From Owenia fusiformis (lineage: Eukaryota): a stretch of DNA of 64,000 bases. Made by a program: the position numbers and the translations under genes. The notes under the pieces were generated by a model that was given only the letters and a program-made list of their open reading frames with translations, had not been told where the DNA came from and made no database searches. Numbering within the stretch: position 1 is the first letter of the stretch; each line of letters begins with the position of its first letter. Shown here in pieces: positions 17,560-49,763 of this stretch. The stretch is from contig CAIIXF020000001.1 in assembly GCA_903813345.2 (NCBI GenBank), forward strand, positions 16,306,001 to 16,370,000, written 5' to 3'.

Positions 17560-17678
17560 TACAGTGCGTATCAAAAAACGCAACAGATTGTTATCTCGGA
17601 AAAGCACAAAACCAGTAATAACAGCATTGATTTCATTCAATGCACCATAAAGCCAAGAGTCTCCTCTTTACAATGATA
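17560..17678 (+). mobile_element. Left part of a Tc1/mariner-like repeat interrupted by the outer LTR element; continues at 45149-~45240
   Basis: Begins TA|CAGTG; the joined sequence CTCCTCTTTACAATGATA|TATCATTCATT matches uninterrupted relatives at ~48865-48930, ~49400-49510 (inverted) and ~55800-55860. Confidence 0.65.
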
Positions 17679-18376
17679 TGTTACAGATCGCTACCCGCAC
17701 AACGACACCACTTGTTACGGATCGCTACATGCACAGCGACACCAATTGTTACGGATCGCGATCGTAACTGTTGCTTCGGGATCTTGTGGTCATTCGGTAC
17801 TCGCGAGGCTCCTTTCTTCTAATCTAACACGACTCCTTTAGATTCGTTTCCTAATTTTATTGTAACTTCTTGATTATCGATCTCCATTATTGATTCGGTC
17901 AGCAGAACTTCAGTAGGCTTGTTATTGTTCCTCCTTTCAATAGTTGTTGAGCATCGTTGTGTGAGTAAAACTTACTGAATCAACAGATCTTGCCGACTTC
18001 TTTATATACCAGGTAAAATACATTATTTTACCTGTCAAAATTGTGCAAATATAAGTAAGAATATTGCTGATTTCATGCTTAGGTAAGCAAGATTCAAATC
18101 ATAATTCTGAGTTGTGATTGGTTGTTGGAAGTTTCAACTTGTCAGAATTCTTCTGATATATCTTTATTTTGGCTGAATATAGTAGCGTAGGGATTCCCCT
18201 GCACTAAAGCAAACTGAGGTCTAAATAGTCATTAATCATAAGAAAGCAGCAAGATCTTTACAATGTTTGAATATGCTGAATATAAATGGTATTTTATATT
18301 GGATAATAAATAATAAATAAATAATGAAGTAATTATATATAATTAAATATAATTACGTACTGACCGAATCATAACA
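17679..18376 (-). repeat. 3' LTR of the outer element
   Basis: Same sequence as 44451-45148; adjoins the PPT. Confidence 0.95.
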
Positions 18377-20199: not shown

Positions 20200-20316
20200 C
20201 AGTTATGTCCCTATCATTGAATATATGCCTAAGGTCTGTCACCAATATAGCCCGAGCTTGCGAGGGTTATATTACGACAGACCGAAGGCATATATTCAAT
20301 GATACGGACATAACTG
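20200..20316. repeat. 117-bp hairpin with CCCGAGCTTGCGAGGG in the loop
   Basis: CAGTTATGTCCCTATCATTGAATATATGCC...GGCATATATTCAATGATACGGACATAACTG. Confidence 0.8.
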
Positions 20317-22927: not shown

Positions 22928-25900
22928 TCAGTGATGGAACAAACATTTATAGCTCGGAGTTCTTTGTAAATGCAATGTTTCTCCATGAGCCTTAGGAGCA
23001 TTTAACAATCTATTTATCGGAGGACAATCATTACTACAGTTGGACAAACATTTATAAATTTCTCCTCCAGATGTGGAAGGAGGTACAATAGTGTCCAACT
23101 TTGTCTCTCCTGTTACTTTTTCCTTTTTACTCAAGGAAGGTGGCACAGTATTTTGCTCCTCGGTTCTGCCGAAAACCTCTAATAAAGGAAACTCCGGGAG
23201 CTTCTCATGAGCTAACACTTCGGTTTCAAGTTTACACATTTCCCAGGAGGAAGGGAGCTCACCCTCAAATCGTCTCAACTGGTCAACATGAATGACCTTG
23301 GGTTTACCTCCTTTGGGATTAACAATTTTACATGTCAAATCAGATGTTACACTGACCACTTTCCATGGTCCAGTCCATCGACTCTTGGACTTAGGAGTGC
23401 TGTCTTTCATTCTTTGGTCATTCTTAAACCATACAGCATCTCCAGCTACATATAATTTACTTGCAACATGCTCATTAGAATTGCGCTTTCGCTGAGGATT
23501 TTTCCTTGCAGCACAAGTACTACAGGCTCTACAAAATGCACGAGCATCAGCATGTTGCCTATGCCAATAAAATCTGGCTCTAGTTTTCTGGTAAGTCTTG
23601 TTTACTCCAAAATGTCCTGAGCAGACATTGGTGTGGGAGTACTTTAACACAGTCTCCTTCATAGGCCTTGGTGTAATGATTTGAAGGGTACATGAAGTTC
23701 CTCCATCATTCTCCCAAGATCGACATAAGACACCATTCTTAATGGTTAACCTATTCCATTGGGTCCAGTAAGTTTTCGTTATCTCAGACTTACAACTGAT
23801 TTCTTTCCAATGTGGTCTGTGTTTTGAATGGTTCAAGGCATGCCATATCGGACTGATGTGAGGATCTTCACGTTGAGCCTCACTTATAGTTTTTAGTGTC
23901 CATTGCGGGACCTCATTATGTTCACAGTTTAGCTTCCCGGAGGAGCTTTTCAATCCACAGCTGGATTTCTTGTCATTAAGACTCTTAAGCAGAGTGGGAG
24001 CTTTGTGACTCCTCACATTTGGCTCATCTACTGATATCTCATAAATTTCCTCACTTACATTTCCATTGGAGGAATTCAGTAACAAATCTCTATTGTGGTA
24101 ATTAATATTGACTCCTTGTTTAGACAAGATGTCACAACCCAAAATGTTGAACCCACTGAGCTGAGCAACAATTATCTGGCCCTCACAAGTAGTACCACAG
24201 AGATCAACAGAGCATTCTATTGCTCCAAATATCTTAAGATGGGAGCCATCCGCCTGTTTAAATATTTTATTCACTTTACATAATTCAGGCTGATTTTCTA
24301 AGGGTATTTTCTGGTAATCAGCAATGTCAATCATAGTTCTGACTGCCCCTGTGTCTACTAGAAAATTCATAGGGTAGCCACATATCTCAGCAGTAGTTAT
24401 TATTCTCTTCACTTGATTTGAACTATCTACATTCTCAAAACTAATAGGAGCAACAGTAGTTTTCTTATCTCTATCCCTTGACTGTGAAGTCTTGGGAAAG
24501 GTACACTCATTACTGTAATGCCCTAATTTGTCACAATTATAACAGGTTATCTCAGACCTAGGCTTTCTTGAGGACCTTTTCTTTACCAGAACAGTTAACA
24601 GAGCCTCCAGCCTGTCAAATAGCTTGTACAGTGCATCATTACTGACGAGATTACCATCGTTAGCACTGCTCTCAATATCAACTGCACCTATGTTATCTGA
24701 TAATAACGTAGGTTTTTGACCCTTACGAATTCGTTCAGATTCAAGGTAAGACTCTTGTTTGAGAGCAATAGAAATAGCTTCATCTAGTGTATCAGGCTCT
24801 CCCATATTAACCACATCTCGAATCTGATCATCAAGCAATGCTTGTTGAAAGTGAGTGCGAGCAAATCTGTCTTGAGCTTCTCTGGACAGTTCAGGAAATG
24901 CCAGAGCTGCCAAGCGTCGAATGTCTTGGCCTAGTTTTTGCAGTGGCTCCTTTGGCCTCTGCTGTCTACTATGAAACTGAGCTTCATACAATTTGGCCTT
25001 GCCTTCAGGCCCAAATCGTTTATCAAGTGCACTCACTAATTGCTCATATGTATAGCCAGGTTGCAATTCATTCAAAATCTCCAAGGCCTGCCCCTTCAAA
25101 CTGGATGCCAGAAAATCATTTCTAGCATTTATGCTCCAGTTATTTGAGCGAGCACACACTTCAAAATGCCTTTTATAGTCTTGCCATGGACTTGTACCGT
25201 CATACTTATCAGGTTTTATTTTCACAGATTTGTTACTAGATTGGTTATCATTTTTCAATGATCCAATAACTTCTCTTACAACCTGTAATACAGGGGTCAT
25301 ATCAACATCAGGTGACGGTGAAGTAGTACCTGTCACATTTACTGTCTGCTGTGTCTGTGAAATGTTTTCTCTATGTGGAGAACTATTCAACAGATCACAA
25401 TTCGGTACGTGCTCTAACACAATATCTCGTGAGGGAGAACTACTAAGTAAATTCCTCTTATTCCCGCCATACTGAGGAGCACTGGGATGATGTGAATCTT
25501 CCCTTCTTACTGAGAGGAATTTGTTTGGAGCCTCATTTATATAATCAGTATTCATGGCTCCTTTGCAAAATTTTATACCCGTTACATTTCGAGCCATCTC
25601 TAAAGTATTTGACACCTTCATTTCGGGTATCTGGCTCTTTTCTCTAGCCTGTTCATCCAGGTCTGAAACAATACCAGGTAAAGACGGAGGATCACCTCCC
25701 ATCTCTGGTGAACTGTGATTAATTGCACTCTGTCTTTTAAGAGCATGTGACTTCTTATGAGGAGACCTTTCCATCTGCTCTACTAATGGAGCTAACTCCT
25801 CCCTTTCAACACGTGCATCTCCTCCTTTAACAACATCTTGAGGAGTTCTGAACCTGACTTTCTCAAGTTCATTCATCAAGGAGCGATTTTCATTAATCAA
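22928..25900 (-). CDS. Gag-protease-truncated integrase polyprotein (no RT, RNase H or DDE core)
   Basis: Capsid (KPDKYDGTSPW...F), CCHC knuckle CYNCDKLGHYSNEC (~24502-24543), protease FLVDTGA (~24345-24365), integrase HHCC (H...GHFG...CRACSTC, ~23512-23635), then GDAVW...WTGPWKV. First ATG at 25876; the frame continues upstream through one TAG. Confidence 0.9.
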   Translation of the reverse strand: MINENRSLMNELEKVRFRTPQDVVKGGDARVEREELAPLVEQMERSPHKKSHALKRQSAINHSSPEMGGDPPSLPGIVSDLDEQAREKSQIPEMKVSNTLEMARNVTGIKFCKGAMNTDYINEAPNKFLSVRREDSHHPSAPQYGGNKRNLLSSSPSRDIVLEHVPNCDLLNSSPHRENISQTQQTVNVTGTTSPSPDVDMTPVLQVVREVIGSLKNDNQSSNKSVKIKPDKYDGTSPWQDYKRHFEVCARSNNWSINARNDFLASSLKGQALEILNELQPGYTYEQLVSALDKRFGPEGKAKLYEAQFHSRQQRPKEPLQKLGQDIRRLAALAFPELSREAQDRFARTHFQQALLDDQIRDVVNMGEPDTLDEAISIALKQESYLESERIRKGQKPTLLSDNIGAVDIESSANDGNLVSNDALYKLFDRLEALLTVLVKKRSSRKPRSEITCYNCDKLGHYSNECTFPKTSQSRDRDKKTTVAPISFENVDSSNQVKRIITTAEICGYPMNFLVDTGAVRTMIDIADYQKIPLENQPELCKVNKIFKQADGSHLKIFGAIECSVDLCGTTCEGQIIVAQLSGFNILGCDILSKQGVNINYHNRDLLLNSSNGNVSEEIYEISVDEPNVRSHKAPTLLKSLNDKKSSCGLKSSSGKLNCEHNEVPQWTLKTISEAQREDPHISPIWHALNHSKHRPHWKEISCKSEITKTYWTQWNRLTIKNGVLCRSWENDGGTSCTLQIITPRPMKETVLKYSHTNVCSGHFGVNKTYQKTRARFYWHRQHADARAFCRACSTCAARKNPQRKRNSNEHVASKLYVAGDAVWFKNDQRMKDSTPKSKSRWTGPWKVVSVTSDLTCKIVNPKGGKPKVIHVDQLRRFEGELPSSWEMCKLETEVLAHEKLPEFPLLEVFGRTEEQNTVPPSLSKKEKVTGETKLDTIVPPSTSGGEIYKCLSNCSNDCPPINRLLNAPKAHGETLHLQRTPSYKCLFHH

Positions 25901-25903
25901 CTC

Positions 25904-26520
25904 CTATGTCTCACGCTTACAACGAGAAATCTCTTTTTCCATCGTGGCTTTGTAAGCAGACAAACTCTGTTCCATCTGAGACGACAGGATAGGAACCAAT
26001 GAGGAAACTGCCTGTGTCACTTCAGATTTCAGAGTTAAGCTCATGCTAGATACAATTTGTATCACATCTGATTTCATGGAGCCCATGTTAGATTCAATTT
26101 GTGTTACATCTGATTTCATGGAGCCCATGTTAGATTTCATAATATCCACTGTATTGCCAATTAAGTCAATGTTGCTCCACAGATGACTAATTTGGTCACT
26201 CATGGCACTGATTTTGTCTGTCTCTGAGGTTGGCACAGCAGTGGAAGAGCAAGGAGCCGGTTGGCAGTCCTCTCTTTTCTTTTTCCCTTTATAAAACTCA
26301 AACCAGTGTCAGACACATACCAATATCCAGTGGATTTTGCCTTCATTTCAAGGTTAGAATCAGTCTTGGGTGTGCTCATAGCAGCATTACCCTTCTTGAA
26401 ATATACAGTGGGCTCTTGGCTCGACTGAGCACTTGTACCACACTTTGTCAGATCTATTAAATCATCTGAGTCTTTACTTGACTCCATAGTGCTCTTTACA
26501 TGCACAAATCTGACTTTCAA
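25904..26520 (-). pseudogene. Upstream Gag N-terminal part (coiled-coil repeats) separated by one frameshift and one in-frame TAG
   Basis: ORF 25904-26236 is in frame with the 990-aa ORF (ACA TAG GAG TTG) and has repeated MGSMKSDV.QI; ORF 26200-26520 overlaps it in another frame. Confidence 0.6.
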
Positions 26521-27021
26521 TTATCAATAAGCACACCAAATGAGCAATTAAGTTACCTTCGATGAGGAATTATACTACTTTGCTCTTTTCGTTACTACAA
26601 ACTCAGGAGCAATATGTCACTTTTGCGTACGAATTATGCTACCTTGGTACAAACCAATTAAGACACGTTGCAAAAGAATTTACACTTCAATGCACTCTTA
26701 GACTGTGACGATTCTACAGTTCCAAATTTAGTTATATAACTCAGTATAACTAGCAACTGCTCTTCAGCCAACTCCTCTTAAAGAACAATACAAATCAAAT
26801 TGAGCGATCCGGCTAACAATTGCTCACAACAATGTTATATCTGCCTCGTCACTCATAAAAACACGTGTACCTGCAGATGCACGGAAAAACGTCAATTTCA
26901 AAATTTGTTCTTTTTCTCAATATTCAACTTGAGTGGCTCCGGAGCAGTTCTATCACATTAATCAATACAGGCTTTCACTGTCAACTTATATAAAGATAAG
27001 ACAGTTACTAGCACATGAGGC

Positions 27022-27176
27022 ATGAGGACTACCCTCGGTTCATAAAACATACAGATTGAGGACTACCCTCGGTTCAAAGAGCAAATCATGAGGAATACCC
27101 TCAGCTCATAAAGCATATACAGTGAGGTCTACCCTCGGTTCACACAATAAAGTCTGAGGACTACCCTCGGTTCATA
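27022..27176. repeat. Five GAGGACTACCCTCGGTTCA motifs in the gypsy 5' leader
   Basis: Copies at ~27024, 27057, 27090, 27125 and 27156, with variable 13-16-nt spacers. Confidence 0.85.
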
Positions 27177-29497
27177 AATTCACTATATAGCAACTAGATA
27201 GAGCACTTCAATTAGTGGCTCATACAAAGTCACGCTATATCTATTCAATGGAGCACTTCTTTCCACAATGAGAGCAATAAAGTCCCTATTGCATATGAAT
27301 TACAATACCTTGGTTGTACCAATTAAGTCACATAGCAATAGCCTTACACTACCTTGCCTCTTTGGAATGAACTATCTGCTCCGCACAAGTGAGTCTAGTG
27401 ATGAAAGTTTACACATATAAAAAAATCAAGACAAGCAAGCCTTTAACACCGCGAGATTCACTTACTAAATAATCATAATCCCTACGCTGCCACCAATGTG
27501 ACGGAATGTGGCGTCTGGGCCGAGCGGAAACCCGTGTGTCACTTTAAAACTCTCACGTGGTATGAGAGCCGGCGGGGAACGTCTGTTGGTGAAAGGATTT
27601 TGTTGTGTTGATTTTTATTATATCGTTATGCCACTGATATAACATGCATAAAATAACAGAATGACAAGGGAAATACACAATGAATAACTTTGAGATGAAT
27701 GAGTCAATTTAGAGGAATGTGTAAATGGAATTAATTATGATAAAGATTCTGGCCAATATCTATTTATACTTTCTAGCTCCTTTGGTGATGGCTCATGAGC
27801 AAAATGAACTGAGCAATCTGTACCTTTGGCTACAATCAATTTCGGCTCGGGAGGAAAATACAATACTCAAATAGCTTAGCAAAACTTCATACACAAAATG
27901 GAGGCCGTCAAAATCCTCCTTATCAATGACTCAATATAAAGCAGGAGCAACTCAATGGGCTCCGGAGCAAAATGTAATGCTCTCAATAATCAGTGAGTCT
28001 CTAAACAAAGCATAAAGTTTCAATAGGCTCCGGAGGAAAATGCAAGACTCCGAATAAATAGCTGAACAAGTGGGAGCAACTCAACGGGCTCCAGAGCAAA
28101 GTGCAATGCTCCCAAATCAATAGCTAAACAAGCTTGTAAGCAAAACAGGAGCTTTGAGAGCAATTAAGTACCTATTGCATATGAATTACTACTACCTTGG
28201 TTATACCAATTAAGTCACATAGCAATAGTCTTACACTACCTTGCCTCTTTGGAATAAACTCTTTGCTCCACACAAGTGAAATCGGCTCCGGAGCAAAACG
28301 TAAGGAGCAGTTTTGGTAAGAGCAATTTGTTACAGATATGGACAATCTTTATGGTTGTGAATGAAATTGAAATAATTGACAAGTCGACAGAAATACTGAG
28401 AATGAAAGATAAGAAAATAATGAATGTGTGAACTGTTAAAGTGATAGAACTACGGGGAATAAAGGATTGGAAATAACGAATGGCAGGTGGAACGTTTCAC
28501 AAAGAATGGAATGTAAAAGATTGAATGAAGGAAAGGATATGAATTTGAACTTATTTCCCTTATCACTCTTGGATTGCAAAGTGGAATTAAAACGGTTATG
28601 TAAACTAGATTCTCTCACTCTGACTTCACTTTACAGATCTAACAGAAAAAGTGAATTTAAAGAACAAATAACAAGACTTTATTATAATTACCGTATGCAG
28701 AATACATGTTCACAACAGCACTGAACGACTTTCAGTATGACAACGCATCTCCGTGTAACGCAAAATATATCCAGTTCAAGTTCGTTATAAATCCATAATA
28801 TAACACCATCAATAGCACAAATATCTGACGTTACTCAATACAGCAATATAAATCCACAATCTGTTACGAATCTGTTATAAATCCAAATGATACAATTTTG
28901 TTATAATTCCAAAATGCGATCGCAGCTCCTTACTCTTCAACGATTCAAAACTAGACTGACCATTCCTCGAATGATCGTGAGAACACTAAGATTACGGAAC
29001 ATCTCTTTCCATATAAGGAAATGTTACTATGACAACGAATCTGAATGCTTGCTACAATGTCAAAATATCTGTCACATCAAAGACTTAATAAACCTACAGC
29101 GAGCTGTCAATCAATTTACTATGTGAGAAATTTTTTGAAAGTGACGGCAAAATGCCGTAAGAAACATAAATCTTGACTGAAAAACACTCTTTTTAAATTA
29201 CAATATCTCCTAAAGTATGAGATCAAATTCAACGTTTAATACACCGTTTAAAAGCTCAATTCACCCTTAATTTAAGAAATAATTATTAGGAGGCCCCGAC
29301 AGGGGGCCTCCTATTAATTTTATAGATATTATTATTATTATTCTTTATTTATTTATTCTTCCTAAACCTTTTTCTCCTACTTCCAACTACCTTTCAACTA
29401 TCTACTATATGCACCTACTAGGGACCTTGGCTGAACTTGGGGGGAAAGGAATTTTTATCTAGGTCAAGGTCAAAGGTCAAAATCTAGGTCAAATCTA

Positions 29498-29992
29498 CAG
29501 GGCTGTCAACTTGGGACCACCTAATATGAGTGACTTCAAAATGTTGGACACCTAAGTCCAAATCTGAACACTTTTGTCCAAATTTTGAACACCTTTGGCC
29601 AACTTTTAAACACCTTTGGCCAAAGTTTGAGCACCTTTGCCAAACTTTGATCACCTCAAATTTTTCGCGCTCGCTACGCTCGCGATGTCGTCAACGGGGG
29701 GGGGGGGGGGGGGGGTAGGTACGAAAATTTCCAATGAACATGCGTGACATATACGGGATTCGCGTGACAAATCCGAACAAATTGCGTTCGGTTTTTTTCC
29801 GACGTTCGTATTTTTACCGTATCATAAACATATTTCGAAAAAAATTCTACAGAAATATTTTTGCGTGACAATTACCAGGTAAAATGCGTATTTGCGTGAC
29901 ATTTTCTGTCACGCAAAAAAAACTGGCGTGACTTCAAATTCTTCAGCAAATGCGTGACAAATACGCAAATTGCGGGACAGTTGACAGGCCTG
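29498..29992. mobile_element. Short-TIR MITE (hAT-like CAGG termini) nested in the HINE
   Basis: TIRs CAGGGCTGTCAACT / AGTTGACAGGCCTG (13 of 14 match); AATCTA on both flanks; related fragment at ~6473-6585. Confidence 0.7.
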
Positions 29993-30059
29993 AATCTAAG
30001 GTTTTTTCAAGTTTCTCAAATCCTGACACTACACTTCAATATTTTTGGCTGAATTTTTG

Positions 30060-31540
30060 CATACAGATAGATATTAGTATTCTATTAGTCTCAGCCTTTT
30101 GCCGTCTGGAGAAATTTTGCCTAGATTTTGAGATATTGAAGGTCAAAAAAAGGTCAAAAAAGGTCTTTTTTCAACTTGCTTCAAATTGACCAAATTTTTT
30201 TTTGAAACTTATCTACAAGTTCTCAGGATTCCAAATCTGACCTTACTTTTGACCTGTGACCTTTGGTTGACCTTCAGTGACCTCCGAAAGGTCAAAAAAG
30301 TTGATTTTTCAAATTGATTTTCTGGATTCAAATTTAGGAATATTTATTCACAAAAGACCTTCTGAGGTCTAAAAAAGTAAGATTTGCAAGGTCAAAGGTC
30401 AAGGTCATCAAACGAAATCACAAACTATGTTTTCTAAGTTTCTCAAAATTGGAGACTACAAATCAATTTTTTTTACTGAAAGTCAGAATATATATTCCTC
30501 TAAAGGTTCTACACATATTAGCAATTGACTATTTATTAAAATTTTGCTTCAGTTTTGAGATATTAGAACTCAAAAACAGTAAAAAGGTCAAATTTCGAAA
30601 TTTTTCAAGGTCAAATTTCAACTTGCTCTAAATTGACCAAACTTTTTTTTAAAAAGCATCTACAAGATCTCAGGAACTCAAATCTGACCTTAATTTTGAC
30701 CTATGACCTTTATTTGATATACTGAGGTCTAAAAAAAGTAAAATTTGCAAGGTCAAAGGTCAAGGTCATCAAACTAAATCACAAACTGTGTTTTCTAAGT
30801 TTCTCAAAATTGGAGACTACAAATCAATATTTTTTCATGAAAGTCAGGATATATATTCCTCTATAGGTTCTACACATATTAGCAATTGGCGATTTATTAA
30901 AATTGTGTACCAGTTTTGAGATATTGGAACTGAAAAACTGAAAAAAGGTCAAATTTCGAAACTGTTCAAGACTAAATTTCAACTTGCTTCAAATTGACCA
31001 ATTTTTTTTTAAAACTCATCTACAAGTTCTCAGGATTCCAAATCTAACCTTACTTTTGACCTTTGACCTTTGGTTGACCTTCAATGACCTCCGAAAGGTC
31101 AAAAAAGTTGATTTTTCAAATCAATTTTCTGGATTCAAATTTAGGTATATTTATTCACAAAAGACCTTCTGAGGTCTAAAAAAGTAAAATTTGCAAGGTC
31201 AAAGGTCAAGGTCATCAAACGAAATCACAAACTGTGTTTTCTAAGTTTCTCAAAATTGGAGACTACAAATCAATATTTTTAAATGAAAGTCAGAATATAT
31301 ATTCCTCTACTAAAGGTTATACACATATTAGCAATTGATTATCTATTAAAATTTGGCTCCAGTTTTGAGATATTATAGCTCAAAAACTGAAAAAAGGTCA
31401 AATTTCAGAATTTTTTAAGGTCAAATTTCAACGTGCATTAATTCGACCAAACCTTTTTTAAAAATCATCTACAAGTTGTCTGGAGTTCATATATGACTTT
31501 GTACCAGAGATTTGACCTAGAGATTTGACCTTTGGCTGGC
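30060..31540 (+). repeat. Central tandem array of the HINE, about 3 units of ~445 bp (one internally deleted)
   Basis: GGTCAAAGGTCAAGGTCATCAAAC recurs at ~30390, ~30751 and ~31196. Confidence 0.85.
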
Positions 31541-34500
31541 CTTTGAATGTTCAGAAACGAATATAGGGCCTCCGTAAGATTGCTTGCAATCTTAGATCGT
31601 TAGATCTCTAGTTATAATTTATAGACAAATACTCTTCTCTATATTTAATGAGAGAGAACATGAGTAAATAAGAACTAAAATCATGTGTGCCAGGCGGCCG
31701 TGAATTAAATAAAATCACACGTTTACACTAGTTATTTAAACATGTCTTACTCAAAAACCATTATTCCTTTTTGCATGAAATAAAAATGAATAAATCGTTA
31801 AAAGAATGTTCTTTTTAACCATATATAAAACATAATTTGATCTTGATCAGAAAACCATGAAAATAAAACTTGAAACTAAATAAGAAAAATGCGCTCCCGC
31901 TACAATACTTTTATATCATGGCTACGTTATATCAATGATTCCACGTGTCTGTGTGCGAGTGAAATTAGGAAGAAATGAAACATGACGTCCCGATGACGTC
32001 ATAAGATTGTCATGGTAAAAGGTTTGGCGGCTATACAGGAATATATATCCAACCTTTAGCTCCATTGACTTCAATACAAATGCTTCGCTGGGTATGTAAT
32101 ACATATATATATAGCACTCTAATCTGATTGTAAAATTTCCAGGTTATGGATGGAATAAGTGGGGTTATATGGGGCAAAATATAAGTCTTCTGCTAAAAGG
32201 AAACATTTGTTACTAGCTTATTCATCGAAAGAAGGGGAAAAGCCCCAGGGTTCAAAGATGACCACTTTTATAATGTAAATCTGCATTGAGATGACCTATC
32301 GTCCTGATTTGTCCAAATCGACAAACATTAATATTGTTATCGAATAATATTATTACTTGTTATGTTCCAATACTTCACCAATTAATTGTCTTACTTATAC
32401 ATAACCTTAAACCTTTTAGCACACAATATACGCTCTGCGTCAGATTGTAATAATATGTTTTGTAAATAATTTGAATGGAACAATAAACAATAAAACAATA
32501 TAATTTCTGGCGTGCTAACCAATATCATAGCTTGTTATTTCACATCATGGTGAAGAAAGATGTAAGGAATATGCTTACATTGATTAAAACATCAACTGGC
32601 GAGAATTTGCGCAAACAAAGGTGGTTATGTCTGTTATTGCTAAACCTCCCCTTTCCCTCCTCGGATTTCCCTCCTCTCTTCATCGGCAATGTCATTAATG
32701 TACAGGATAACACAAAAAATACCACCAACTAATTTTGGAATAACTTTCTGAATAATTAAGGAATCTATGGGCTTTTTGTATAGATAAAGTGTTCAATGGA
32801 AAAATGATTTAGAATTATCATGTTTTCAGTCCTGGTATGCTCTCAGTGAAATTATCAAACATGTTCAAAAATACAATTTACTTAAAGGAAGAGGTGCGTT
32901 TTTGGCAAATACCCCTATGGTCAAAATGAATCATTCTTAGTGTAGCATGAAAATAGAATGTCATAAAATTCTTTGAAAAGTATTAAAGTGCTTTGGCACA
33001 CATTGGCTGAGATAGGTTGTATTGACTTACATGGGGCTGTGCATCATTGACTTAAAGGTTCAATAAAGAACATAGAAGAAATTTGGGAATCATTTTACCT
33101 TTCCCGAGCTATTAGTGCAACGTTTGGCCTAATGTCTTCTTCGCCATACCTATTTTCTTAAAATGTATCCACTTGTCGACGAATACCACCATGCAGACTT
33201 GCAAATAGACTTCTAAATAAGCAATTGAAAGGTTGAACATCCCGCATTTTGTTTTTTGAAACATTTCTGAATGTCCACCATTTAAAATTGTAACTGCAGC
33301 TGAGATTAGGTAAGACCGCATGTAAGCATGTTTACAGTATAACCGCGGTTGTCTGATATAACCCTATGCATGAACAGGCTATGACTGCCGTTGACGGTCT
33401 ATTACTGGCGACTCTTGCAGTTAGCCTGGTCCACTGACGAAGAAAACTCAAAAATGGAAGACTAAAACACCTCAAATCTGCCCATATCAAGATCTTCTTG
33501 ACAAACGCATGGTATATAGGAAACCGAATGTTGGATAGAACCTTAGGTGAAAACGGGGCTGGAATCCAATGACAATATGACCAGGAAAATCATTAAAAGG
33601 TACGTGAGGAATTTTTCTGTCGATGTCGGGAGCAGATTCCCGGGGATTTAGGATGCCAGTGATTGTGAATATCGGCAGAAATTAGGTACGTTCGGGGGTT
33701 TTCTTTGTAGCTAATGAAAATAGGTGTTAGCCTTGATGAAATATCAAAAATTTGATATATTTTGACACCGGGACCATGATCGTTGGATACGTCTCTGCAC
33801 TATTTATTCAGCCTTCAACATGAGGATATCAGCAGATCCCAATAGAGGCCATTGGTTTCCATTGGTCATAGTGTTTTTTTTGGTATTTTTGTGATAATAA
33901 TAATTTCACAATGTGACACAAATTGTTTATCTCATCAAATGTGCAAATATGATGGCTGCAATCGATTCAGGTCATACTTAAAATTAGATTGTACATTTTT
34001 TCCTTACAAAATGGCTATAGAAAAATGCTCCAAAAACAACTTTTACACTTATCAAAAATCATACAACTTTGTAAAACCATCAACAAAACCAAATGCAAAA
34101 CCAAAGAATATACCATTATATTTCATTATGTAGTAACATATTTGGATAAGATGTAGGGATGGGTAGGATGCAAATGGATTTTGACAGACACAAAATTACT
34201 TGGTTTGGAATCTATGCCTCTACACTTCATGATTGAATTATGACCCTAATAAGTGGCCTATACATTAAAACAGTGCTGAATATAGGTCAACAAGATACTA
34301 GTGTGCATATAAATGTGATAATTAAAGCAGAATACTCATTTTGAAAAATCAGATGAATTATTTTTTTCTCATGGGGAGATCCCAATGGAGAGTGCATATG
34401 GTCCTTTCTGGATTGCTTTCACTAGTTTACACATATATTATCAATAGTATGACATATTAACCAATTTTTCTTAAATCTTCTGTTAAATTTGATAAACTGA

Positions 34501-35364
34501 CTCGCTTATTAGGTATATTTTAAGGAAAACAGATTCTTAATTCTAATAGTTTTGAGTGATTTTGTGTCAGAGCACACCTACACGGAAAATTGGAAAATTT
34601 CCAAGTTGTTGATCCTATGCAAGCATAGAAATCTTTTTCTATTGAACACTCTGTCTACACCTAATATATATGAAGATTCATTAATTGTTGAAAAAGTTAT
34701 TCCAAAATTAGTGAGTGACATGTTTTGTGTCACCCTGTATAAAAAGAACAAAATGGGTCATAAGATCCATGCGGAACTCCTGCAGTTGACAGGTAATTTT
34801 ATAATTATTAAACCTTCACAAACTCCCAATGTAGTATATGGTATGACATGCCATAACGGTAAGGTACAACACAAAGAATGTGAATTTGCGCTAAAATGTA
34901 TCTCAGGTAAATGTACCCGTGCGTTGTACCCTATACTACATTTGGAATTTATTTAGGTTTAATTATGAAATTCACGGTCAAGTTCACTGTCTGTTCACTG
35001 AATGTTGTTACAGACATTCACATCTAAAATATCTAGAAACTAGACCAAATCTTTCTGAAACGATGAAAACATCAGTTTGCTCAAATTGCATCATCCTCGT
35101 GATGTACCTTACCCTGTGCGTACAACTGTCACGCTTAATTTTATCTTATTAAAAAGTCTCAAAAGTACATAAGCTAGTGAGATGGCTTCTTGCTTAAGCA
35201 TTTTATTATCCCATCAAAACGAGGATACAGGAAAACTGTCAGAACGTTCATTCATCTTCCTGTCCCACTGTCCATGTGTTTGGGCGATAAATCAAATACT
35301 GGTTGACAAATTTGATTCAAATTTTACAGGCTTATGCCTTTCGAGCATAGGACAATTTAGCTTA

Positions 35365-35775
35365 GAAGGAATTTTCAAAATGGCCACTCAGTTGATGGAT
35401 TTGGTCCAAAGTGTATATGTTGATACCAAAGGAGCTATGAAAAAGAAGAGATTTTCAAGAGGGTCGATAAATTTCAAAATGGCTGCCATTTTTCATAACG
35501 AAAACATTTTCAAGATTTTAGCTAAATTGCAAGATGGCCACCATTCTTTGTAAAATAATGTTATCGTTCATAACCCAAATACCAGTTGGTTTGGTTAAAA
35601 TTGTATGCGCGATATGCCGATACCTAGAGACAACGGAGCACTGCTCGAGAAGACATTTTTCAAGAGGCCATTGAATTTCAAAATGGCTGTCATTTTCAGA
35701 CAACGGAGCACTGCTCCAGAAGACATTTTTCAAGAGGCCATTGAATTTCAAAATGGTTGCCATTTTCAGAAAAAC
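35365..35775 (+). repeat. Minisatellite of TTTCAAAATGGCTGCCATTTT units, including two ~71-bp copies
   Basis: AGACAACGGAGCACTGCTC.AGAAGACATTTT...GAGGCCATTGAATTTCAAAATGG repeated at ~35628 and ~35698. Confidence 0.75.
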
Positions 35776-38700
35776 ATAATCTTCAAATACCAGTGGACTG
35801 ATTTGACTCAAAGCTGATTCCTAGGGAAAGAGGAGTTCTGTTCAAGCAATTTTTTTCATGATGGGGGCTATTTATCAAAACATGTTTTGTTCGGTGGGAT
35901 TGACTACTCCGTGGAGTGGCTGTTTTCTAGCTACTTAAATAGAATCAGGACCAGCTTTGTCAGTCTTTAGTGCCAATAAAATGTTAAAATCTTCAGTATT
36001 TTTCGTTGAAAGAAGATCCAAGAAGGTATCAATGCTACGACCCATTTAAATTTGGTATAATATTGGTTATTTCCATTCTGGTCATTATTTACTCAAAATT
36101 GTATTTCCATATGGATTTATTAAAAAGGGTTTTCATCAAACATTAAATGTCATTACTGTCAGTACTGCGTCAACCCCAAAAGACTTTCTCGGGGGACAGA
36201 TTTTTTAGACCCAGTGCCCAAAATTCCCGGGATTTTGCGGGACATCCACCTGAATTCGTCAAATTTCTTTAAAGCGAAGTCCCCATGATAGTAAAATACC
36301 AATCCAACTCTCCGAAAAATTATGGATTAGGACCCCAGTTTGTCACTTTTTTAAAAATGTAAGGCTTATTTTCTAAAAAGAGGATCTGTTTTTCTCAATT
36401 TAAACGTATCAAAAGATCTTCTCCACTATATTAATAACTTCTGAAAAGGGCATGGGTATTGAAATGCGATAAAGTTAAAACCACATATCCCATGTTATTT
36501 TCCCATAGGGAAAAATCATGCTATCCAATGTTTTCAGCATGATTTTGGTCATTGAAGATTGATATCTTCAAAACTAGACGTTCAATATCATTCTACTTTT
36601 GAAGATGTTTTAGACCCCTTGTTGAATAATGTTAAGTTTTCATGCAATAAAAATAAGAAAAAGAAGATACTCTTTTGAGCAAATAAGTTCAACATTTTGA
36701 AAAAATAGTTGACGTGGGGTCCCTATTTACAATTTCTCGAATTGTTCAATTGATATGTTTATCATCATGGGGACTTCACTTGAAAGATAAACAAACACTC
36801 TAATTGCGGGACAGTTAACAGGGTAACCACCAAAGACTTCATCGAGGGACAGATTTTTTAGACAAAGTACACTAAATTCAGGGGACATTCAAGGGATTTG
36901 CGCGATTGGGACTTAATGTAAAAGTACTCAAACCAACTTTCAGGTACTGATGATTAATCAAATATAATGCACTTAACTTAAACACGGTGTTAAATAAACG
37001 TCAACACAATCTCACACAATATGCATAGGAATATTATTACGTAGTTTCCGTTATATCTTCACATATCGTTTACATTAACATAAACTTCAGGAAAAATGAA
37101 AGCACTGAGGAAGAGGAAGTAACGCATACGGGTTTTAATAATAAATTAGTGTTTACCAAATTCAGTGTAATGCGTACAACTTTTGCAATACTTTATTAGG
37201 AGGTCAAAGCCGACATTGCGGGACTTTGTGGGACATTGCATATAAGGTTTACACTTAGAGATTGCTTTCCTTTCTGGGCTTCTTTAAGGTTTTTAGTAAT
37301 TTCCCTAATTTGATGTTTATACTTAGATATTTAGCATTACAGAATTATATTCCATTTGAAGATTGAATAATAATCATGCTTGATAAAACGCATTATTTGT
37401 TATAAAAGTGTTATTTTGTGGGAAATTTGTGCAATGAAAAATGGGGTATGGGAACTTTATTAAGACAATTATATTGACCTAACATCCTTCCATTTTGGCC
37501 AATAGGGTTTATTGTGCCAGTAATTTCATCCTTATTCTCCATATATCATATGATAATCATTGCTACATCTAAACAATATCATGTTTGCAACTTAAAATCT
37601 TGAAAAAGTTGAAGAATACTCCAAAATAGCGAAAAAATGGGAAAAGAAAAAAGCATGTCAAATCTTGAATTCTCAAAATCCCAGTTATTTTATTGCAGAT
37701 AATGAAAGCCCTAATGCTCTTCTTACCAAAAGTAATACTCACTGTACATGGGACATCTGGCTTTTCTGGCAAATTGGATCCAAAGATGGTTGCCATTTCG
37801 TCTCTATATTGACCCTCATGTTTACAACTAAAATCACGAAAACCTTGAAGAAATGGCCGAAAACATCGAAAAAAAAGTTAAAAGTAAAATGCCTGTAAAA
37901 TCTTGAAAACCCAAAATCCCAGTTATTTTATTGCAGATTATGAAAGCTCTTATGCTCCTCTTTCCAACAGTAATACCCACTCTACACGAGACATCTGGCT
38001 TATTAAACAAACTGGGTCCAAAGATGGCTGCCATTTCGTCTCTTAATTGACCCATGTTCCAGAAAAGGCTCCGTAACCATGGCAACCATTGTGACGTCAT
38101 AATAAACAATACATAAGAACTCTTCAACATGTCCCATATACAAATCAAATAGTTATTAACTGGTTTTGGATCATCTTCTTAGCATACCATAAGCTGGAAA
38201 TATATCTTTTTTCACTGATTTTGGTGCATTTTCTAGGTTGTGAAAATACAACAAACATGGGTTGCTTAGCAACGGTGTCATACACTAACCAATCATCTGT
38301 GAGAAAAATGAATGACATATTTTGGCTTCCCAATGGTCATACTTTCATATAAGAATGAAATTTTTGAAATATAAAATTTGACCTGTGCCACCTCCTGCCC
38401 CCTTTTTACAAATAGTGCCTCTTAAGCTTTATTCTTAGTCTCCGTCTTCATATCACTATTAGTGTTTATGAATTGTTGTAGCAGTATGGATATGCATATG
38501 TAAATGTCTCTATCCATTCTCTTCTCTTCATAGCATTTGCTAGGTTCACCTTCAGCGTCCATATTCATTATCGATATCACTGATCATAATCCGCATTCAG
38601 CGTTCATATGTTGTGTGATCCATTGATAGATGGCACCTGGTGATTCTTTAGTTCATCTTTGTAGGAGCTACTCGTCTCTGAAGTCATCTTCTTCTTTTGT

Positions 38701-40249
38701 TATTTTATTAGTGATTAATATATTATCATGTTATAATGGTTAAATAAGGTGAGTAAATATGATTACTATGTGAGTAATATGTATGAATACATGCAATGAT
38801 GATACTTGACTAAACTTATCTAACTTATCTCTATACCTAACATCTTATGTTCAATTTACTTTTACATGGAGACATACTTATACCTTGTATGCCCTCTATA
38901 TAAGATTTACAAAATTCTGCCCACCTGCACCTTCCAATAAGGTACAATCCGTTCGGCAGATTATCACACTTCATGCATCTTTAACATCTTCCAATAAGAT
39001 GTTATTCATGATATATGATAAATATATTATAAACAAATTAGAGTTAGTATTATTTACAACTCACTTCAGTCAAAGGCACTGAGGTAATATCGGTTAATAA
39101 ATTATTCGATCAATTAATTATGTACACCTGGATTATATGTTATGATGATACACACGTTATATTTCATAGTAGTTATCATGTGCACACACTAAGTGCATTT
39201 AGTGCATTTATTACTCATGCACTAAATTAGTAAAACATGCTTCGAATATATATTTGGTTATATGTGATTATATATGTCAGATCAATTAATTATTTACATC
39301 TGGTATTTAATTGATCAAAAGGGGATTCTTGAGATGATAGCGTCTGAAGTTTTGGCCTCTTCTTCGCTCTAGACCGTTTCATCATCCAAAAGAGGTCCCC
39401 AACAGAGACCAATTTAAGACAACTATTAACTTTCAGGTCTTCTAGAAACTGCCGGGCCTGTTATAAGCGTTAGTGTGAAATATGATATATATATATATAC
39501 ATGCATATATTTAGCAATTTAAATGAATTCCCCTTTTATTTATGCTTTTTCTTCAAAACTTAAACATGCAATTTATATTCTTATAACACACTTAGTTTTT
39601 CACAAATAACACGCAATGCTTTTAACGCAAACTTTTATCGTCGTTACAAGTATATAAAATGTCATCATGGTCAATATAACATTTGACCTAGTTTTGGGGG
39701 ACATAATGTTTTACAAATTCTTGATCACGACTTATAGTTGTATTCACATGGAACTAATTGTCACATGACGACCTTCTATTCTAATTATGCTCTCCATCGT
39801 CAATAAAACTCAATACATATATTTTTTATATTATTGTCATTCAGTAAATATTTATGACAATCGCAATCGCAACTAGAGCAAAAGAAACACAAATCAACAC
39901 ATCGGTCATATTTATTCCAAACCAGCTTTTTTTCTTTCCGGAACTCAACTGATCCATTTCTGGAGAGCAACAGGTCTTTTGACCTAAGTCATATGTAAAC
40001 CGTTTAACATCTTTGCCATTTTCCCAAAGATTTTTCTAGTAGTATCAAAGTGACCGGTGATTTTCACAACAAATACTCTTCCAAATTTAATTCAACCTTA
40101 GCCGCATTAACAGTTCATTTTAGTAATTAGTTATGTTAAATTTTCATTAAATCTATCATATAATAGGTTCACTCTGGTATATAATTATCTTTGATCATCA
40201 GAAAACAATCAAAGTTCTGATTTATTTTTCAATAACTACAATAAGGTAT

Positions 40250-43200
40250 ATGTTTTGACAGATTGCGCTTACAGCGATACTCATCACATTTTTCTGTCTT
40301 CAACAGAAATACATACTAGTGTGAGGCTAATAGAAGGCCATGATTTCTCATGATGCGCTTACAGCGTATGACCTAATTATCACTCATCGCCGCTTTTATC
40401 AATTGATTATTGGATATTTTCATAATTCTTGCGTAGATTTATTTCCTCATGATAATTGAATTTTTCAGGGTTTTGAAATATCTAAATTGCACTGATAATT
40501 CATTTAGACTCTAGTTAGCGCTTTTTTGGAATATTAGCCGAAATGTAATCCGACTATGGATATCTCCTTTGTCAACTTCTTCAATCGCCAAAGCATCTCA
40601 TAATTCAATCAATAACCCGGTTATTGCTGACTTTTTTTTTTATTTCAGTATATACTTATTTATTTCGTCAAATTACAGCCTTTATATTTGTGTCATTCAT
40701 AATAATTGATTTATAGTCGCGCAATTTTGTTCTATCATAAAACATTAAGTATACCGGTTCCCTGATAATTCCATGAAATCATCTAATATAAATTCGGAAA
40801 TGATCAAATAATAGATAAAAGCTTTAATGTCTAGAAAACTAATAATTAGGAACACGAGGGAATGAATCAGATCCCCTCGCATGGCCATTGACCTTGACAA
40901 TTTTCATTCCTTAATTATATCCACTCATTCAAATTTTTTTCAACACTTATATTTTATATTAACCAATATCACCTAATATTTTAAACAACAAATTATTAAT
41001 GTAACATTTCTCAAATATGTTAACTACACTTCTTCATTGTTCTCTTGGAACAATTACGATAGTATATTTTTTATACCGTATTGGTGTTTATTCTTTTCAG
41101 TATTTTGCTTATTTTTTCCATCTCCTATATTCATCCTCCCTTCACAGAAGTAATGTTTTGACACATGTTTCTAGAGTCAGTCTTCCACCAAACAGGACGT
41201 CTCCTTCATGATGTAAACATGACCCTAAGAAATCATTCTTTCCGGACAATAACAACTTAATTAATGCAATTTTTACAACTCTATTCTATATAATACTTGT
41301 AAGTTGATCGTACACTTACTCTCCTGTCATTAAAGCAGGTTTCTGATTTAATTATCTACATAATTGGGGAATTATTGATTGTTTCCGATTCCCATAATGG
41401 AATTCAAACTTGCTTTATTCTAGCAAATAATGGGGTTCTACTTTTACCCTCCTTAAAACAATTAGTACTTCATAACTCTTCTCTACTTCATAATCATCAT
41501 CTCTCTCATATACATATTTACTCTTATTATACTCGACATCTTCATTACTTATGTTCTCCATTGACTCTTCATTGGTCAATGCTTAATTGCTTTCTATAGC
41601 ATTTCTCATTATCTTATTCTACCATTAAGAATCATTTTGATGTGAGACTAAATCAGGAATGAATCTTTCCTTTTAATGTACTTCACTATCAGATTCAAAA
41701 TATAGCTAATGGGGTTCTATTTGACTCCCATTTTAAATAGCTTTTAAAACTCTCTTAATTTCATTATATCTCTTAATTACATAATACTCATTTTATCATC
41801 ATCATCTTCATATATCATCTTTATTTCTTATGTGTATACACTATATCTTCTTTTATTTATCTATTCCATCGACTTCTCTATGGTCGAGGATCAATTAACT
41901 TCATATGCCCTTCTCCTAACTCTTATACCCTCTAGTTTTAAATCATTTTATTGTGAATTATAATCAGGAGCATTATACCTGTTATTACAATCAGGAGCTT
42001 TTATACCTGTTATCTTCATTTTCACAGACAGATTCGAAACATCCATATGGTTTATCTTCTGCATCAATCATCACAGTGACTGTGTCAAGATCATAACCTT
42101 CGGGTAATATTTTATTTGGCATTCTCCTATTTCTAACTTATCTCATATTTCTAACTTATTCTAACTCATAACAACATATCTCACATTGCTTACGCAAACG
42201 TAGGTGTAGACCATTCATTGACCATCTGATACCTTTTTGATAAAGGTATAATCAGCTTCATTTAATGACTTGCATATTTTGCAAGGGTCAGCCCACTGTT
42301 CCTACTTCTTGACTTTTATACCTACGATGGGTATTTTAGTCATAAATCTTATTAACTTCTCACCTACTCTCTTTCAGTGCGGTGTAACCTTAAGTTATTC
42401 ACCTTTATGAATGGAATCATTTCTCTAGATTCCTCTCAAATTTTCTTATATGTGATCTTACTTTAATTATGTATCATTTCTTGGTAGAAACTTGTCTACT
42501 TGATACTTTATTACGGATTACCGTTTCAAATCTATATTTTTTAACTACGTTAGGTAGTTATTAACTTTTAACAACTGATATTAATTTACTATACCAGTAT
42601 CAGCAACAGGTTTTGTTTTTATTTTGGTTTTCGACGGGTCACAATAACCTAACTTGCCTGAAGCAAAGAGCTCATAAAATATTAAGGCATGTGTTTACCA
42701 TGCATATGATTCTCTTGGATCCTGCGTTCAGGAGTTAACTTAGGAACTTGTGACACGTATGTACCTGTACCTTAACATTATCATATTTTTTTGCAGAGGT
42801 ATGCATACTGCATTTACCTTCTCACGAAAGTTTATTTATACCCCTTTTAAACTGACAAATATGCTTGCGCAAGTATTTTCAATACAATCATTTAGCATAC
42901 TTCAGCACAAAACTACAAAAGGGACTAAATCATTTGTAATCTTTCTTATAGACCTACTCCTGGTCATAAATTGACTGGATCGAGAATATATTGCTTAACA
43001 TTTCCCTTCGAGAGATTTTCGTGAAGTCTATTTTGACTAGCATAAACAGTTAGTCTTGATTTATGTAGGTTTCTTGATTCAATATGAGAATACAATTATA
43101 AAATGGCTTCAATTAAAATTTTTATGTTAAAGTTATTCATGATTTCATGTAATATTTATTCAAAAAATCGACAATTTGCATTTTGTCCTATTTAATCCTT

Positions 43201-44205
43201 ATATGACAAATAACATCATCGGAATACTTACCTGTCTGATTGTTATTTGTGTGAACGTTTTTCTTTTAAATTTAACCTTTCATTTCCGGTTCTTAATGTT
43301 CTAATTTAAAATTCAGGATAGACCTAAATATCATAATTCAATAGGCATACGGCTTTTAAAAACTCTGTGTCAATTAAAGACTTTTTGAGCGCCTGTGTCA
43401 ACAAGACACTTTGCCACATTACCAAATAATTTTGCTTTTCAAAGCATTTTCTAAATATAAATCTTTCCTGAATCTCAAAGTCTACTATAAATTTCTCGCG
43501 AGGATTGTCGTCAACATTCTTTCTCGAACGAAACTTAAGTCTTCGCATCTCTAGACTCGGCTTTTGGCGTTTAAAGAGTCAACTTGACGCGTTTTATCGA
43601 AATTTTGAGTAACTAACTCACTTTTGTTATTTTCCAACTCTAAATGTATTTGATTTATACACTCAGCTAACCAAAATGCTGACTCGGCAAAAACGAGATC
43701 ACTTGATTGCTTGGAAATAACAATTTTTTTTTAATTCTGGGAGAACGTTTTTGTTTAAAATTTTGCGTTTGTTCCAACCCAGCTGCAAATGCGATGCTAA
43801 ACGTTTGATATCTTTCACGATCTTAACTGTCTTAATTGATTTCTGAATCCTAGAAGGTGATCGAGCTTGTATATTACACATTTTCCTACTTAAATATATT
43901 TGAATTGTTCTAATTTGTTCATTGTTCCGCCACTGTAAGTCGCAATTAACATTGTTAAACAATTTTACAGGGCTTTGATTTAAAGCATTTCCATCAAATG
44001 TTTTTATTCTAAATTTATTCTGTACCTCATTTCTATTTTGGATCAAAATCTCTAGCCTATTCATTTTTCTCTTGAAGTTCTGCATAATGACCTTGTCTAA
44101 CTATTAATGAATCTATAAATAGCCTTGTAAATCTGGGTTCTGACCTGGTTCTAAAATTTTTAATTCGACTTGAATAACTACCGTTATGATCTACTCTACT
44201 CATTA
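40250..44205 (-). pseudogene. Heavily decayed gag/pol relics of the outer element
   Basis: 43699-44085 reads IKTFDG...IQIYLS...DIKRLASHL (capsid-like); DTG codons near 42595 (protease-like); faint RT-like words (RDYKS ~40715, LKNS ~40460, RNHGL...EKC ~40290-40350) among many stops. Confidence 0.4.
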
Positions 44206-44450
44206 TCATTTATCATAATTCTTAACGAAATTCTGAACCTCGTTTTCCTCAAACCACTGTACAGCTATTAATTATCTGTCTTAAACCTAACTTCTCGCTT
44301 GGCATTTTAGGGAAAAATTTATGTTAGTTGATGTATGATGAAAACATGCTTTTTTCATGCATTTATTAATACTTACATAACCGTTCTTTCTTTTATCTAC
44401 GGCAGCTTCAACTTGAATTGTTACCTTTATTACCCGGCAGCTCCACCAAT

Positions 44451-45148
44451 TGTTACAGATCGCTACCCGCACAACGACACCACTTGTTACGGATCGCTAC
44501 ATGCACAGCGACACCAATTGTTACGGATCGCGATCGTAACTGTTGCTTCGGGATCTTGTGGTCATTCGGTACTCGCGAGGCTCCTTTCTTCTAATCTAAC
44601 ACGACTCCTTTAGATTCGTTTCCTAATTTTATTGTAACTTCTTGATTATCGATCTCCATTATTGATTCGGTCAGCAGAACTTCAGTAGGCTTGTTATTGT
44701 TCCTCCTTTCAATAGTTGTTGAGCATCGTTGTGTGAGTAAAACTTACTGAATCAACAGATCTTGCCGACTTCTTTATATACCAGGTAAAATACATTATTT
44801 TACCTGTCAAAATTGTGCAAATATAAGTAAGAATATTGCTGATTTCATGCTTAGGTAAGCAAGATTCAAATCATAATTCTGAGTTGTGATTGGTTGTTGG
44901 AAGTTTCAACTTGTCAGAATTCTTCTGATATATCTTTATTTTGGCTGAATATAGTAGCGTAGGGATTCCCCTGCACTAAAGCAAACTGAGGTCTAAATAG
45001 TCATTAATCATAAGAAAGCAGCAAGATCTTTACAATGTTTGAATATGCTGAATATAAATGGTATTTTATATTGGATAATAAATAATAAATAAATAATGAA
45101 GTAATTATATATAATTAAATATAATTACGTACTGACCGAATCATAACA
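44451..45148 (-). repeat. 5' LTR of the outer element
   Basis: Adjoins the PBS through a 2-nt spacer; TATA-like TATATAAAG on the minus strand at ~44772-44780. Confidence 0.95.
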
Positions 45149-46049
45149 GATATATCATTCATTGATATTTGGTCATGGTTGAGCGAGTAATCATTCCATT
45201 TGCAAAGTGGGCCAAAATTAGCTTTGGGCCAAGTTCACTGGCATGTAGCGATTATAGCGATACTGGATACTTTACTGAATTGTGTCGAAGTTAGACGTGT
45301 GGTGCGGAAGTTAATATGCAGATGACCATTATTTCAATGTTATATTGTTTGTAGGCAAATTGAGATTAGGCCATTGTAGTATTTGTTTCACGCATACATA
45401 AAGCATAACGCATTCAAGGGTCACATTTATCATTAAACCAATAACTCAAACATATGACCTTGTACACCGACCACCTCTTGAAATCAATGCAGGCCAATTT
45501 CAACGAATGCAAACGGTGGTCTATAAAAGAAACATAATCAAGCATGACCACGTCCCAACTTCTTTTGTTTTCTTTACAACTAAGCTATGACTGCAGTCTA
45601 TTCAGTGTTGCGTATCGAACCTTGTTTATTATAAAAATAGTGCAACAACAAGCAGAATTCACACATTTACCTTATACTTATTCTCAACTGAAGACATTGA
45701 ATTTATCTCTTAGGTTTTACATTATAAATATCTTAACATGCAGAATACGAAAATAGAGGCTTAGGCCCAACTTTGTATTGATTTTATGAAAATAATCTGA
45801 TTTTAGAGAAATGAAAAGAAAAATGTCCACACCCTACACAAAATATTTATGGTTCCCCGGGAATACGTATGTGTTGCTTTATATTAGAATCGTATTCCAG
45901 TTACAGAAAGAAGTACATATCATGCTAAACTATATACATATATTTATCGTCTATTATCCTTTGACAAGAAAAGTAGAGAATAAAAATGAAAAATTTAAAA
46001 AATTTAAAAAAGGAAATAACATTAATTTTTTAGAAAACTACTTGGTATA

Positions 46050-49520: not shown

Positions 49521-49763
49521 ACTAGCCCAAGAAAAAGGCCCCAAAAAGTGGGCCTTTTTGGTCATTACTAGGCCCACTTTTCGGTTTTAGGGGCCCAACA
49601 TTTTTCCTCTGACCGGAAATTTGCCCTCCCCCTCTTGTTGGTTCCTGGATCCGCCACTGCCACTAGTTCACCATTCAAATTGACTCCTGATACGTTACAG
49701 CTTTTCAAGTTACTGAGTACATACGATTTACTCAAAATTGGCCTGGACGGAAAGTAAAAAATC

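Follow-up and report, generated by a model that had tools for sequence, protein, structure and literature searches.

A naturally polymorphic LTR retrotransposon family of Owenia fusiformis with several putative primer-binding sites and a probably moved LTR edge

During reverse transcription of an LTR retrotransposon, minus-strand synthesis begins at the base directly 5' of the primer-binding site (PBS). The position of the primer tRNA thus sets the U5 end and defines the inner edge of the LTR, and natural cases in which this edge has visibly shifted are hard to find. In the stretch of Owenia fusiformis DNA that we analysed (64 kb, hereafter the window), the U5 end of an LTR is built as a tandem array of 34-nt units, each of which has a U5 end (...GTAACA), 2 nt and a segment that starts with TGG and resembles a PBS. 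The question raised by this locus is how several LTR termini and several apparent primer-binding sites came to be stacked at one LTR end, and which of them defines the LTR of the present copy.

The array belongs to an LTR retrotransposon of 27.5 kb on the minus strand of the window (17679-45148), the features of which are collected in the table below. From a self-BLAST of the window, we observed that its two LTRs are in direct orientation, are both 698 bp long and are 100% identical, with TG...CA ends (TGTTA...TAACA). The target-site duplication (TSD), TATC on the element strand, is only 4 bp long, for which a chance match alone is expected once in 256. As the TSD abuts the outermost GTAACA, this GTAACA is the integrated end, in agreement with the original prediction that integration had used the outermost terminus. 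The 18-mer TGGTGGAGCTGCCGGGTA, which occupies the PBS position next to this end, occurs once in the window, and we infer it to be Ala-like.

Features of the outer LTR retrotransposon and of its U5-end/PBS array (positions in the window; sequences in the last column are on the element strand unless stated otherwise)
Feature	Position	Strand	Details
5' LTR	44451..45148	-	698 bp; starts with TGTTATG, ends with GATCTGTAACA
3' LTR	17679..18376	-	unit 1 at 17757-17724, unit 2 at 17723-17690, terminus at 17689-17679
Target-site duplication, upstream copy	45149..45152		TATC on the element strand, GATA on the plus strand
Target-site duplication, downstream copy	17675..17678		TATC on the element strand, GATA on the plus strand
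Polypurine tract	18378..18390	-	AAAGAAGGGGAGA; directly upstream of the 3' LTR
Interior	18377..44430	-	~26 kb; nested LTR element at 20330-29288 and other repeats
U5 motif GCGATCC	44525..44531	-	opens each duplicated block; recurs at the unit junctions (GCGATCC / GCGATCT)
Unit 1	44496..44529	-	GATCCGTAACA (44529-44519), AT, TGGTGTCGCTGTGCATG (44516-44500), TAGC; within U5
Unit 2	44462..44495	-	GATCCGTAACA (44495-44485), AG, TGGTGTCGTTGTGCGGG (44482-44466), TAGC; within U5
Unit 3 terminus	44449..44461	-	GATCTGTAACA (44461-44451), the true LTR end, and AT; followed by the live PBS
Live primer-binding site	44431..44448	-	TGGTGGAGCTGCCGGGTA; 18-mer starting with TGG, 2 nt past the 5' LTR
Worn unit 4	44400..44424	-	GTAACA, AT and TCAAGTTGAAGCTGCCG; degenerate, Ala-like, in the interior, after ATAAAG

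We looked for coding capacity in the element. Only one ORF of at least 150 aa is present in 17000-46000, and it is part of the nested element. Among ORFs of at least 70 aa, 19 of 50 were scanned against Pfam, two of these lying inside the nested element; the 17 chosen ORFs outside it gave no match at E<=0.01, and one of the two inside it gave weak coiled-coil-type matches only. No Pfam match was obtained either for the 37 sense-strand ORFs of at least 45 aa in 29289-44450, which were taken from 101 ORFs on both strands; ORFs of 45-69 aa were covered on this strand and in this interval. As no recognisable gag/pol of its own (RT, RNase H, integrase) was found, the outer element is treated as non-autonomous. 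It is best explained as a young, recently inserted, non-autonomous and non-coding LTR retrotransposon.

Several other repeats were observed in and around the interior. The nested LTR element (minus strand) has LTRs of 1792 bp with 99.83% identity and an ORF of 991 aa (22928-25903) with zinc knuckle, aspartic protease, and integrase zinc-binding and C-terminal domains; this ORF has no RT or RNase H match in Pfam. A PBS-like TGGTGGCAGCGTAGGGAT is located 1 nt past the LTR end of the nested element, and its outer flanks, CCTCC and GTATG, form no target duplication. A stretch of 293 bp that adjoins its 3' LTR (22119-22411) recurs with 100% identity upstream of its 5' LTR (31612-31904), 9.5 kb apart, which suggests a tandem or recombinant arrangement of the nested element. 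An inverted repeat of ~760 bp in the interior of the outer element (18594-19357 and 37673-38425, 95% identity) may represent two copies of another mobile element. Satellite-like tandem repeats that are 87-92% identical occupy 30169-31497, with spacings of ~361, 449 and 807 bp, and a ~130-bp repeat with a C-rich start (16876-17009 and 49571-49700, 92.5% identity) flanks the outer element beyond its TSD.

In the array itself, units 1 and 2 are located inside both LTRs, unit 3 has the live PBS, and the worn unit 4 follows. Tandem Repeats Finder (TRF) reported a period of 34 with 2.6 copies, 88% matches and a score of 141 at 44444-44531, and it found the same array in the other LTR at 17679-17759. 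Both observations bear out the original prediction, which had described three TAACA ends at a 34-bp period together with a worn fourth one, and had stated that two of the units recur in the other LTR; the minus-strand sequence that it quoted (44560-44385) is present as written. The motif GTAACAAKTGGTG has five exact occurrences in the window, all of them in the two arrays, and one further occurrence with a single mismatch; 0.21 were expected from shuffled sequences, and none of 100 shuffles reached six matches. The 14-mer that opens the inner segments was found four times, in the arrays only (0.10 expected). The TRF score and the two motif counts exclude a chance origin of the array. Misassembly was also rejected, the same three units being present in both LTRs and in a contig of another sequencing run, which is possibly the source sample of the assembly. 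No LTR end is located at 59993-60005, where the motif occurs with the single mismatch.

When the four units are aligned, 14 columns are invariant, with GTAACAA among them. The repeated block is not the same throughout. Units 1-3 repeat a block of 34 nt (GCGATCC...GGGTA) that ends at nt 19 of the primer segment, and units 3 and 4 repeat one of 32 nt (GTAACA...ATAAAG). These are two separate duplication events over one module, with differing breakpoints.

We examined whether other copies in the species have the same structure by aligning four public runs, labelled as the same species, to 44200-45300. Three of them (X16, X17 and X18) are raw reads of one sample, of which 369, 342 and 406 reads, respectively, were placed (1117 in total). 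The fourth (X1) consists of contigs from a single further run, possibly the one from which the assembly was made. Over 44422-44495, which comprises unit 2, the terminus of unit 3 and the live PBS, the depth was zero in X16 and X17; in X18 it was 3.46 at 44422-44458 and 0.22 at 44459-44495. Further upstream in the LTR, the depth in these three runs was in the tens.

Twenty-six of the raw reads bypass the array and join 44503 to the interior. Three distinct junction variants were observed, all of them at the array/PBS spot: 44503 is joined to 44395 with CCC (plus strand) in between (12 reads), to 44392 with GTACCC in between (3 reads), or to 44391 with 32 letters in between (11 reads). All three forms have the element-strand sequence ...GATCCGTAACA-AT-TGGTGTCGCTGTGC-GGGTA and then continue into the interior (AAAGAAAG... 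or C-AAGAAAG...). A worn stretch that is similar to unit 4, ATGAAG-GTAACA-AG-TTGAAGCTGTC, precedes the interior in the form with 11 reads. The TGG segment of the single unit in the 26 reads has its first 14 nt in common with unit 1 and its end, GGGTA, in common with unit 2. The sample therefore contains copies that have one unit, with a segment of the inner-spacer type in the PBS position. We also observed that position 44436 in the live PBS is changed in all four X18 reads that cross this site, and that other copies are without 5 nt in the worn unit 4. Behind 45148, 44 raw reads have loose ends with an agreement of 0.49-0.59 among the loose ends listed, and this low agreement indicates many different insertion flanks.

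The raw-read depth at 44755-45050 was ~3-5 times that at 44533-44700, and loose ends with an agreeing consensus were found at 44733-44735 (13-19 reads per run, among those listed). This indicates a commoner LTR subfamily, which shares only the U3-side part of the LTR, 44733-45050 in the window. One consensus (agreement 0.76-0.92, among those listed) is shared by 9-11 reads per run that depart from the window before 44541; they represent a subfamily with a different but related U5 end.

Among the X1 contigs, one of 183 nt covers 44377-44562 with all three units and has a further PBS variant, in which two substitutions and an inserted TA are present; its unit 4 has lost 5 nt. The word depth of this contig was 150.7 compared to 13.3 for the adjoining interior contig, a contrast that suggests several three-unit copies, word depth being not equal to copy number. 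In another X1 contig (299 nt, depth 32.4), a single unit is joined straight to an Ala-like PBS, and the U5 is diverged (21 other letters). Both the number of units, one versus three, and the type of the PBS vary among copies in the species. A unit number fixed in every copy, which the original prediction had named among the outcomes that would speak against it, is contradicted by the existence of both one-unit and three-unit copies.

The array might be due to the host, in that a tandem duplication by replication slippage, unrelated to priming, could have reached the other LTR in one transposition cycle. Tandem duplications of short blocks are frequent, units 1-3 match each other at 88%, and the TGG starts would simply have been inherited from a duplicated PBS. 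However, the module was duplicated independently with differing breakpoints, and several structural variants in the reads cluster exactly at the U5/PBS junction. The position of the block end is also relevant in this respect. The end of plus-strand strong-stop DNA lies one base before m1A58 of the tRNA. According to the accessible part of PMC8599865, this DNA stops 18 nt into the tRNA and read-through adds more tRNA sequence; the end of the duplicated 34-nt block is within one base of this strong-stop end. The recurrent rearrangement centred on the PBS argues for errors of reverse transcription over those of host DNA replication, and we judge a host-side duplication to be very improbable as the origin of the array.

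Recombination between subfamilies offers another route. Copy-choice between co-packaged RNAs, or unequal DNA recombination, could have stacked inner-type and Ala-type modules, and no primer switch within the lineage would then have occurred. Both single-unit subfamilies are indeed present, the inner type in the raw reads of X16-X18 and the Ala type in the X1 contig with the diverged U5, and the 13-nt common block GCGATCCGTAACA could have provided the homology for such a switch. However, with one type shared by units 1 and 2, at least one plain duplication would still be required, and the U5 of the Ala-type contig is unlike that of the window, hence this contig is no direct parent. We regard a recombinant origin as unlikely.

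We then compared the two types of primer segment. Position 7 of the PBS is A in the live site and C in the inner type. The A corresponds to U70 of the tRNA, which together with A73 fits tRNA-Ala by the G3:U70 rule. If both sites are exact complements, the C versus A at position 7 means that they pair with different tRNAs. Overall, the inner type is separated from the Ala-like type by only ~3 substitutions and one indel, and it is one base too long in the Ala-like T-stem register. Judged from its letters, the inner type may have a second tRNA as its partner, or it may derive from an Ala site by decay or as a chimera.

Searches for the tRNAs gave the following results. In the window, ARAGORN found no tRNA gene and Rfam none at the gathering score. 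For a tRNA-like 3' end of the inner type, a query in the standard tRNA register that combined 13 nt with generic letters for the T-loop was run against metagenome contigs; none of the 42 matches was in a tRNA gene, a result of little weight as the contigs are mostly prokaryotic. The 18-mer made of LTR end and PBS had no match in viral contigs; its six matches in bacterial genomes were located in ordinary bacterial contigs and were taken as chance. In the literature, the PBS strings were found only in unrelated primers and constructs.

The original prediction had interpreted the array as the product of stepwise priming at ever newer downstream PBSs, each for another tRNA, so that the LTR would be a chronological repeat-spacer record. 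The part of this claim by which the inner spacers are former primer sites has gained support: the inner-type segment is in the PBS position in the 26 single-unit reads of other copies, the unit number is variable, and the live PBS is of another type than the inner segments, with A (Ala-like U70, by the G3:U70 rule) versus C at position 7. The strictly downstream order, on the other hand, found no support. The most decayed unit, the Ala-like unit 4, is located downstream of the live PBS, and in 11 reads also behind an inner-type PBS; units 1 and 2 are of one type and do not represent two primers; and no tRNA match was obtained with ARAGORN and Rfam in the window or in the mostly prokaryotic metagenome scan. 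The differing breakpoints point to repeated, direction-free slippage rather than to an ordered archive, and we consider such an archive unlikely.

The units could also be maintained by selection as a multi-primer device, with several usable sites in the leader for different helpers or primers, or as a buffer against PBS-directed silencing. Consistent with this, no gag/pol domain of its own was found in the ORFs scanned, and one module was duplicated at least two times with differing breakpoints. Engineered retroviral vectors with two PBSs reportedly start at both sites (Voronin and Pathak 2004). In the accessible part of PMC12853362, PBS sequences are described as targets of 3'-tRNA fragments. 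However, compared to the PBS type of the other copies, units 1 and 2 differ by 2 and 1 changes, respectively, and unit 4 is heavily decayed, a drift that looks like neutral decay and not like maintenance. The RNA fold of the array is also ordinary (-49 kcal/mol, z = -1.33; 22 of 200 shuffles fold equally well). A selected device is, in our view, quite improbable.

We consider it probable that the U5-end/PBS module was duplicated repeatedly in the course of reverse transcription, and that priming at a downstream unit drew the upstream units into the LTR. We reconstruct the reverse-transcription origin, the tRNAs involved and the order of events as follows. The module would comprise the last 13 nt of U5 (ending with CA), the 2 nt trimmed by integrase, which removes two bases after CA, and a primer-binding segment of ~19 nt. 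Its duplications most likely arose at the PBS, the end point of plus-strand strong-stop DNA, by slippage or by misalignment of the plus-strand transfer; slippage during host DNA replication is a possible source of a unit as well. Because reverse transcription sets the U5 end at the primer, the LTR would grow by downstream-unit priming, its boundary being fixed by whichever unit carries the tRNA primer. As the LTRs are identical and both end at unit 3, the last replication was, by these rules, primed at 44448-44431. In the lineage of the window copy, minus-strand synthesis would have begun at the third unit, and units 1 and 2 would thereby have been absorbed into U5 and copied to both LTRs. The TGG segments of these two units would then represent the PBS type that is still in the PBS position in the single-unit relatives. 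The different, Ala-like PBS of the third unit may have been acquired through a switch of primer, or from the Ala-type subfamily through recombination.

A more specific mechanism for the generation of units can be imagined, in which the U5-end/PBS module would act as a self-renewing primer-switch cassette and read-through of strong-stop synthesis into the T arm would stamp new 34-nt units. The six bases after GGGTA-G at each junction are CGATCC, identical to the U5 motif one period upstream. They are presumably what read-through into a T arm with G52-G53-A54-psi55-C56-G57 would add. The CGATCC at the 3' end of the read-through product would then pair again with this upstream motif, and a fresh 34-nt unit would be templated by whichever tRNA had primed. 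By this means, a non-autonomous element might try new primers, from the inner type to the Ala-like one, with the old site kept, and dated ex-PBS units would remain inside the LTR. A change of helper, or PBS-directed silencing by 3'-tRNA fragments, might be the driver. We hold such a cassette to be doubtful.

Whichever way its units were generated, the window family is best described as a naturally polymorphic multi-PBS LTR retrotransposon, the LTR edge of which has probably moved. In the literature searched, with most subscription journals outside its coverage, we found no natural LTR that has internal tandem U5-end/PBS modules; the only related cases were the distant second PBS of Gypsy and an engineered two-PBS vector. 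Within one species, the family forms a polymorphic series of copies that have one unit with either PBS type, or three units and a worn one; such a series gives a direct view of LTR growth, of primer switching and of errors in strand transfer. The family is also relevant to annotation tools, in which a single PBS outside the LTR is assumed. If the inner type matches a second tRNA, the family would provide a natural case of a retroelement that switched its primer tRNA.

The repeated duplication of the module and the downstream priming that we propose can be compared with several known systems. The PBS is normally single and located outside the LTR, and the canonical junction has CA, ~2 nt that are removed by integrase, and an 18-nt PBS starting with TGG. 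Unit 3 has this layout beside the interior, and each unit of the window has CA, 2 nt and TGG. Unlike the canonical case, the window element has two additional copies of the layout in U5, in both LTRs, and a further, decayed one in the interior. The closest engineered parallel is in the retroviral vectors with two primer-binding sites that Voronin and Pathak are said to have described (J Virol, 2004), in which a start at the downstream site reportedly carries the upstream PBS into the LTR. The window copy likewise has tandem PBSs in one leader, with the upstream copies embedded in the U5 of both LTRs. Those vectors, however, are man-made and have defined PBSs, whereas the window family is natural, polymorphic and non-autonomous, with up to four units and at least two PBS types.

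In its overall structure, the element is similar to LARD-type elements, which are large non-coding, non-autonomous LTR derivatives. It has a long interior in which no gag/pol was found, intact LTRs, a putative PBS, a polypurine tract and a TSD. It differs from them in that its ~26-kb interior consists largely of other repeats and the nested element, and the analysis revealed no helper element.

Primer pairing beyond the PBS is represented by the U5-T-psi-C pairing of avian retroviruses and by the primer activation signal of HIV. The CGATCC located 8 nt upstream of each TGG segment is the complement of a T-arm stretch G52-G53-A54-psi55-C56-G57. From this we infer a link with the T arm of the tRNA; every unit of the array has the CGATCC, which may simply belong to the duplicated block. 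For lentiviral genomes, the accessible part of PMC8599865 describes complementarity to the tRNA past the 18-nt PBS, up to position 55. In Ty3 and Gypsy, a second or bipartite PBS near the 3' end of the RNA pairs with another part of the same tRNA, as described in the accessible part of PMC1635307. As far as that text goes, these elements resemble the window element in having more than one tRNA-binding segment per genome, and they differ from it in that their second site is no repeat of the LTR end with the 3'-end PBS (PMC1635307).
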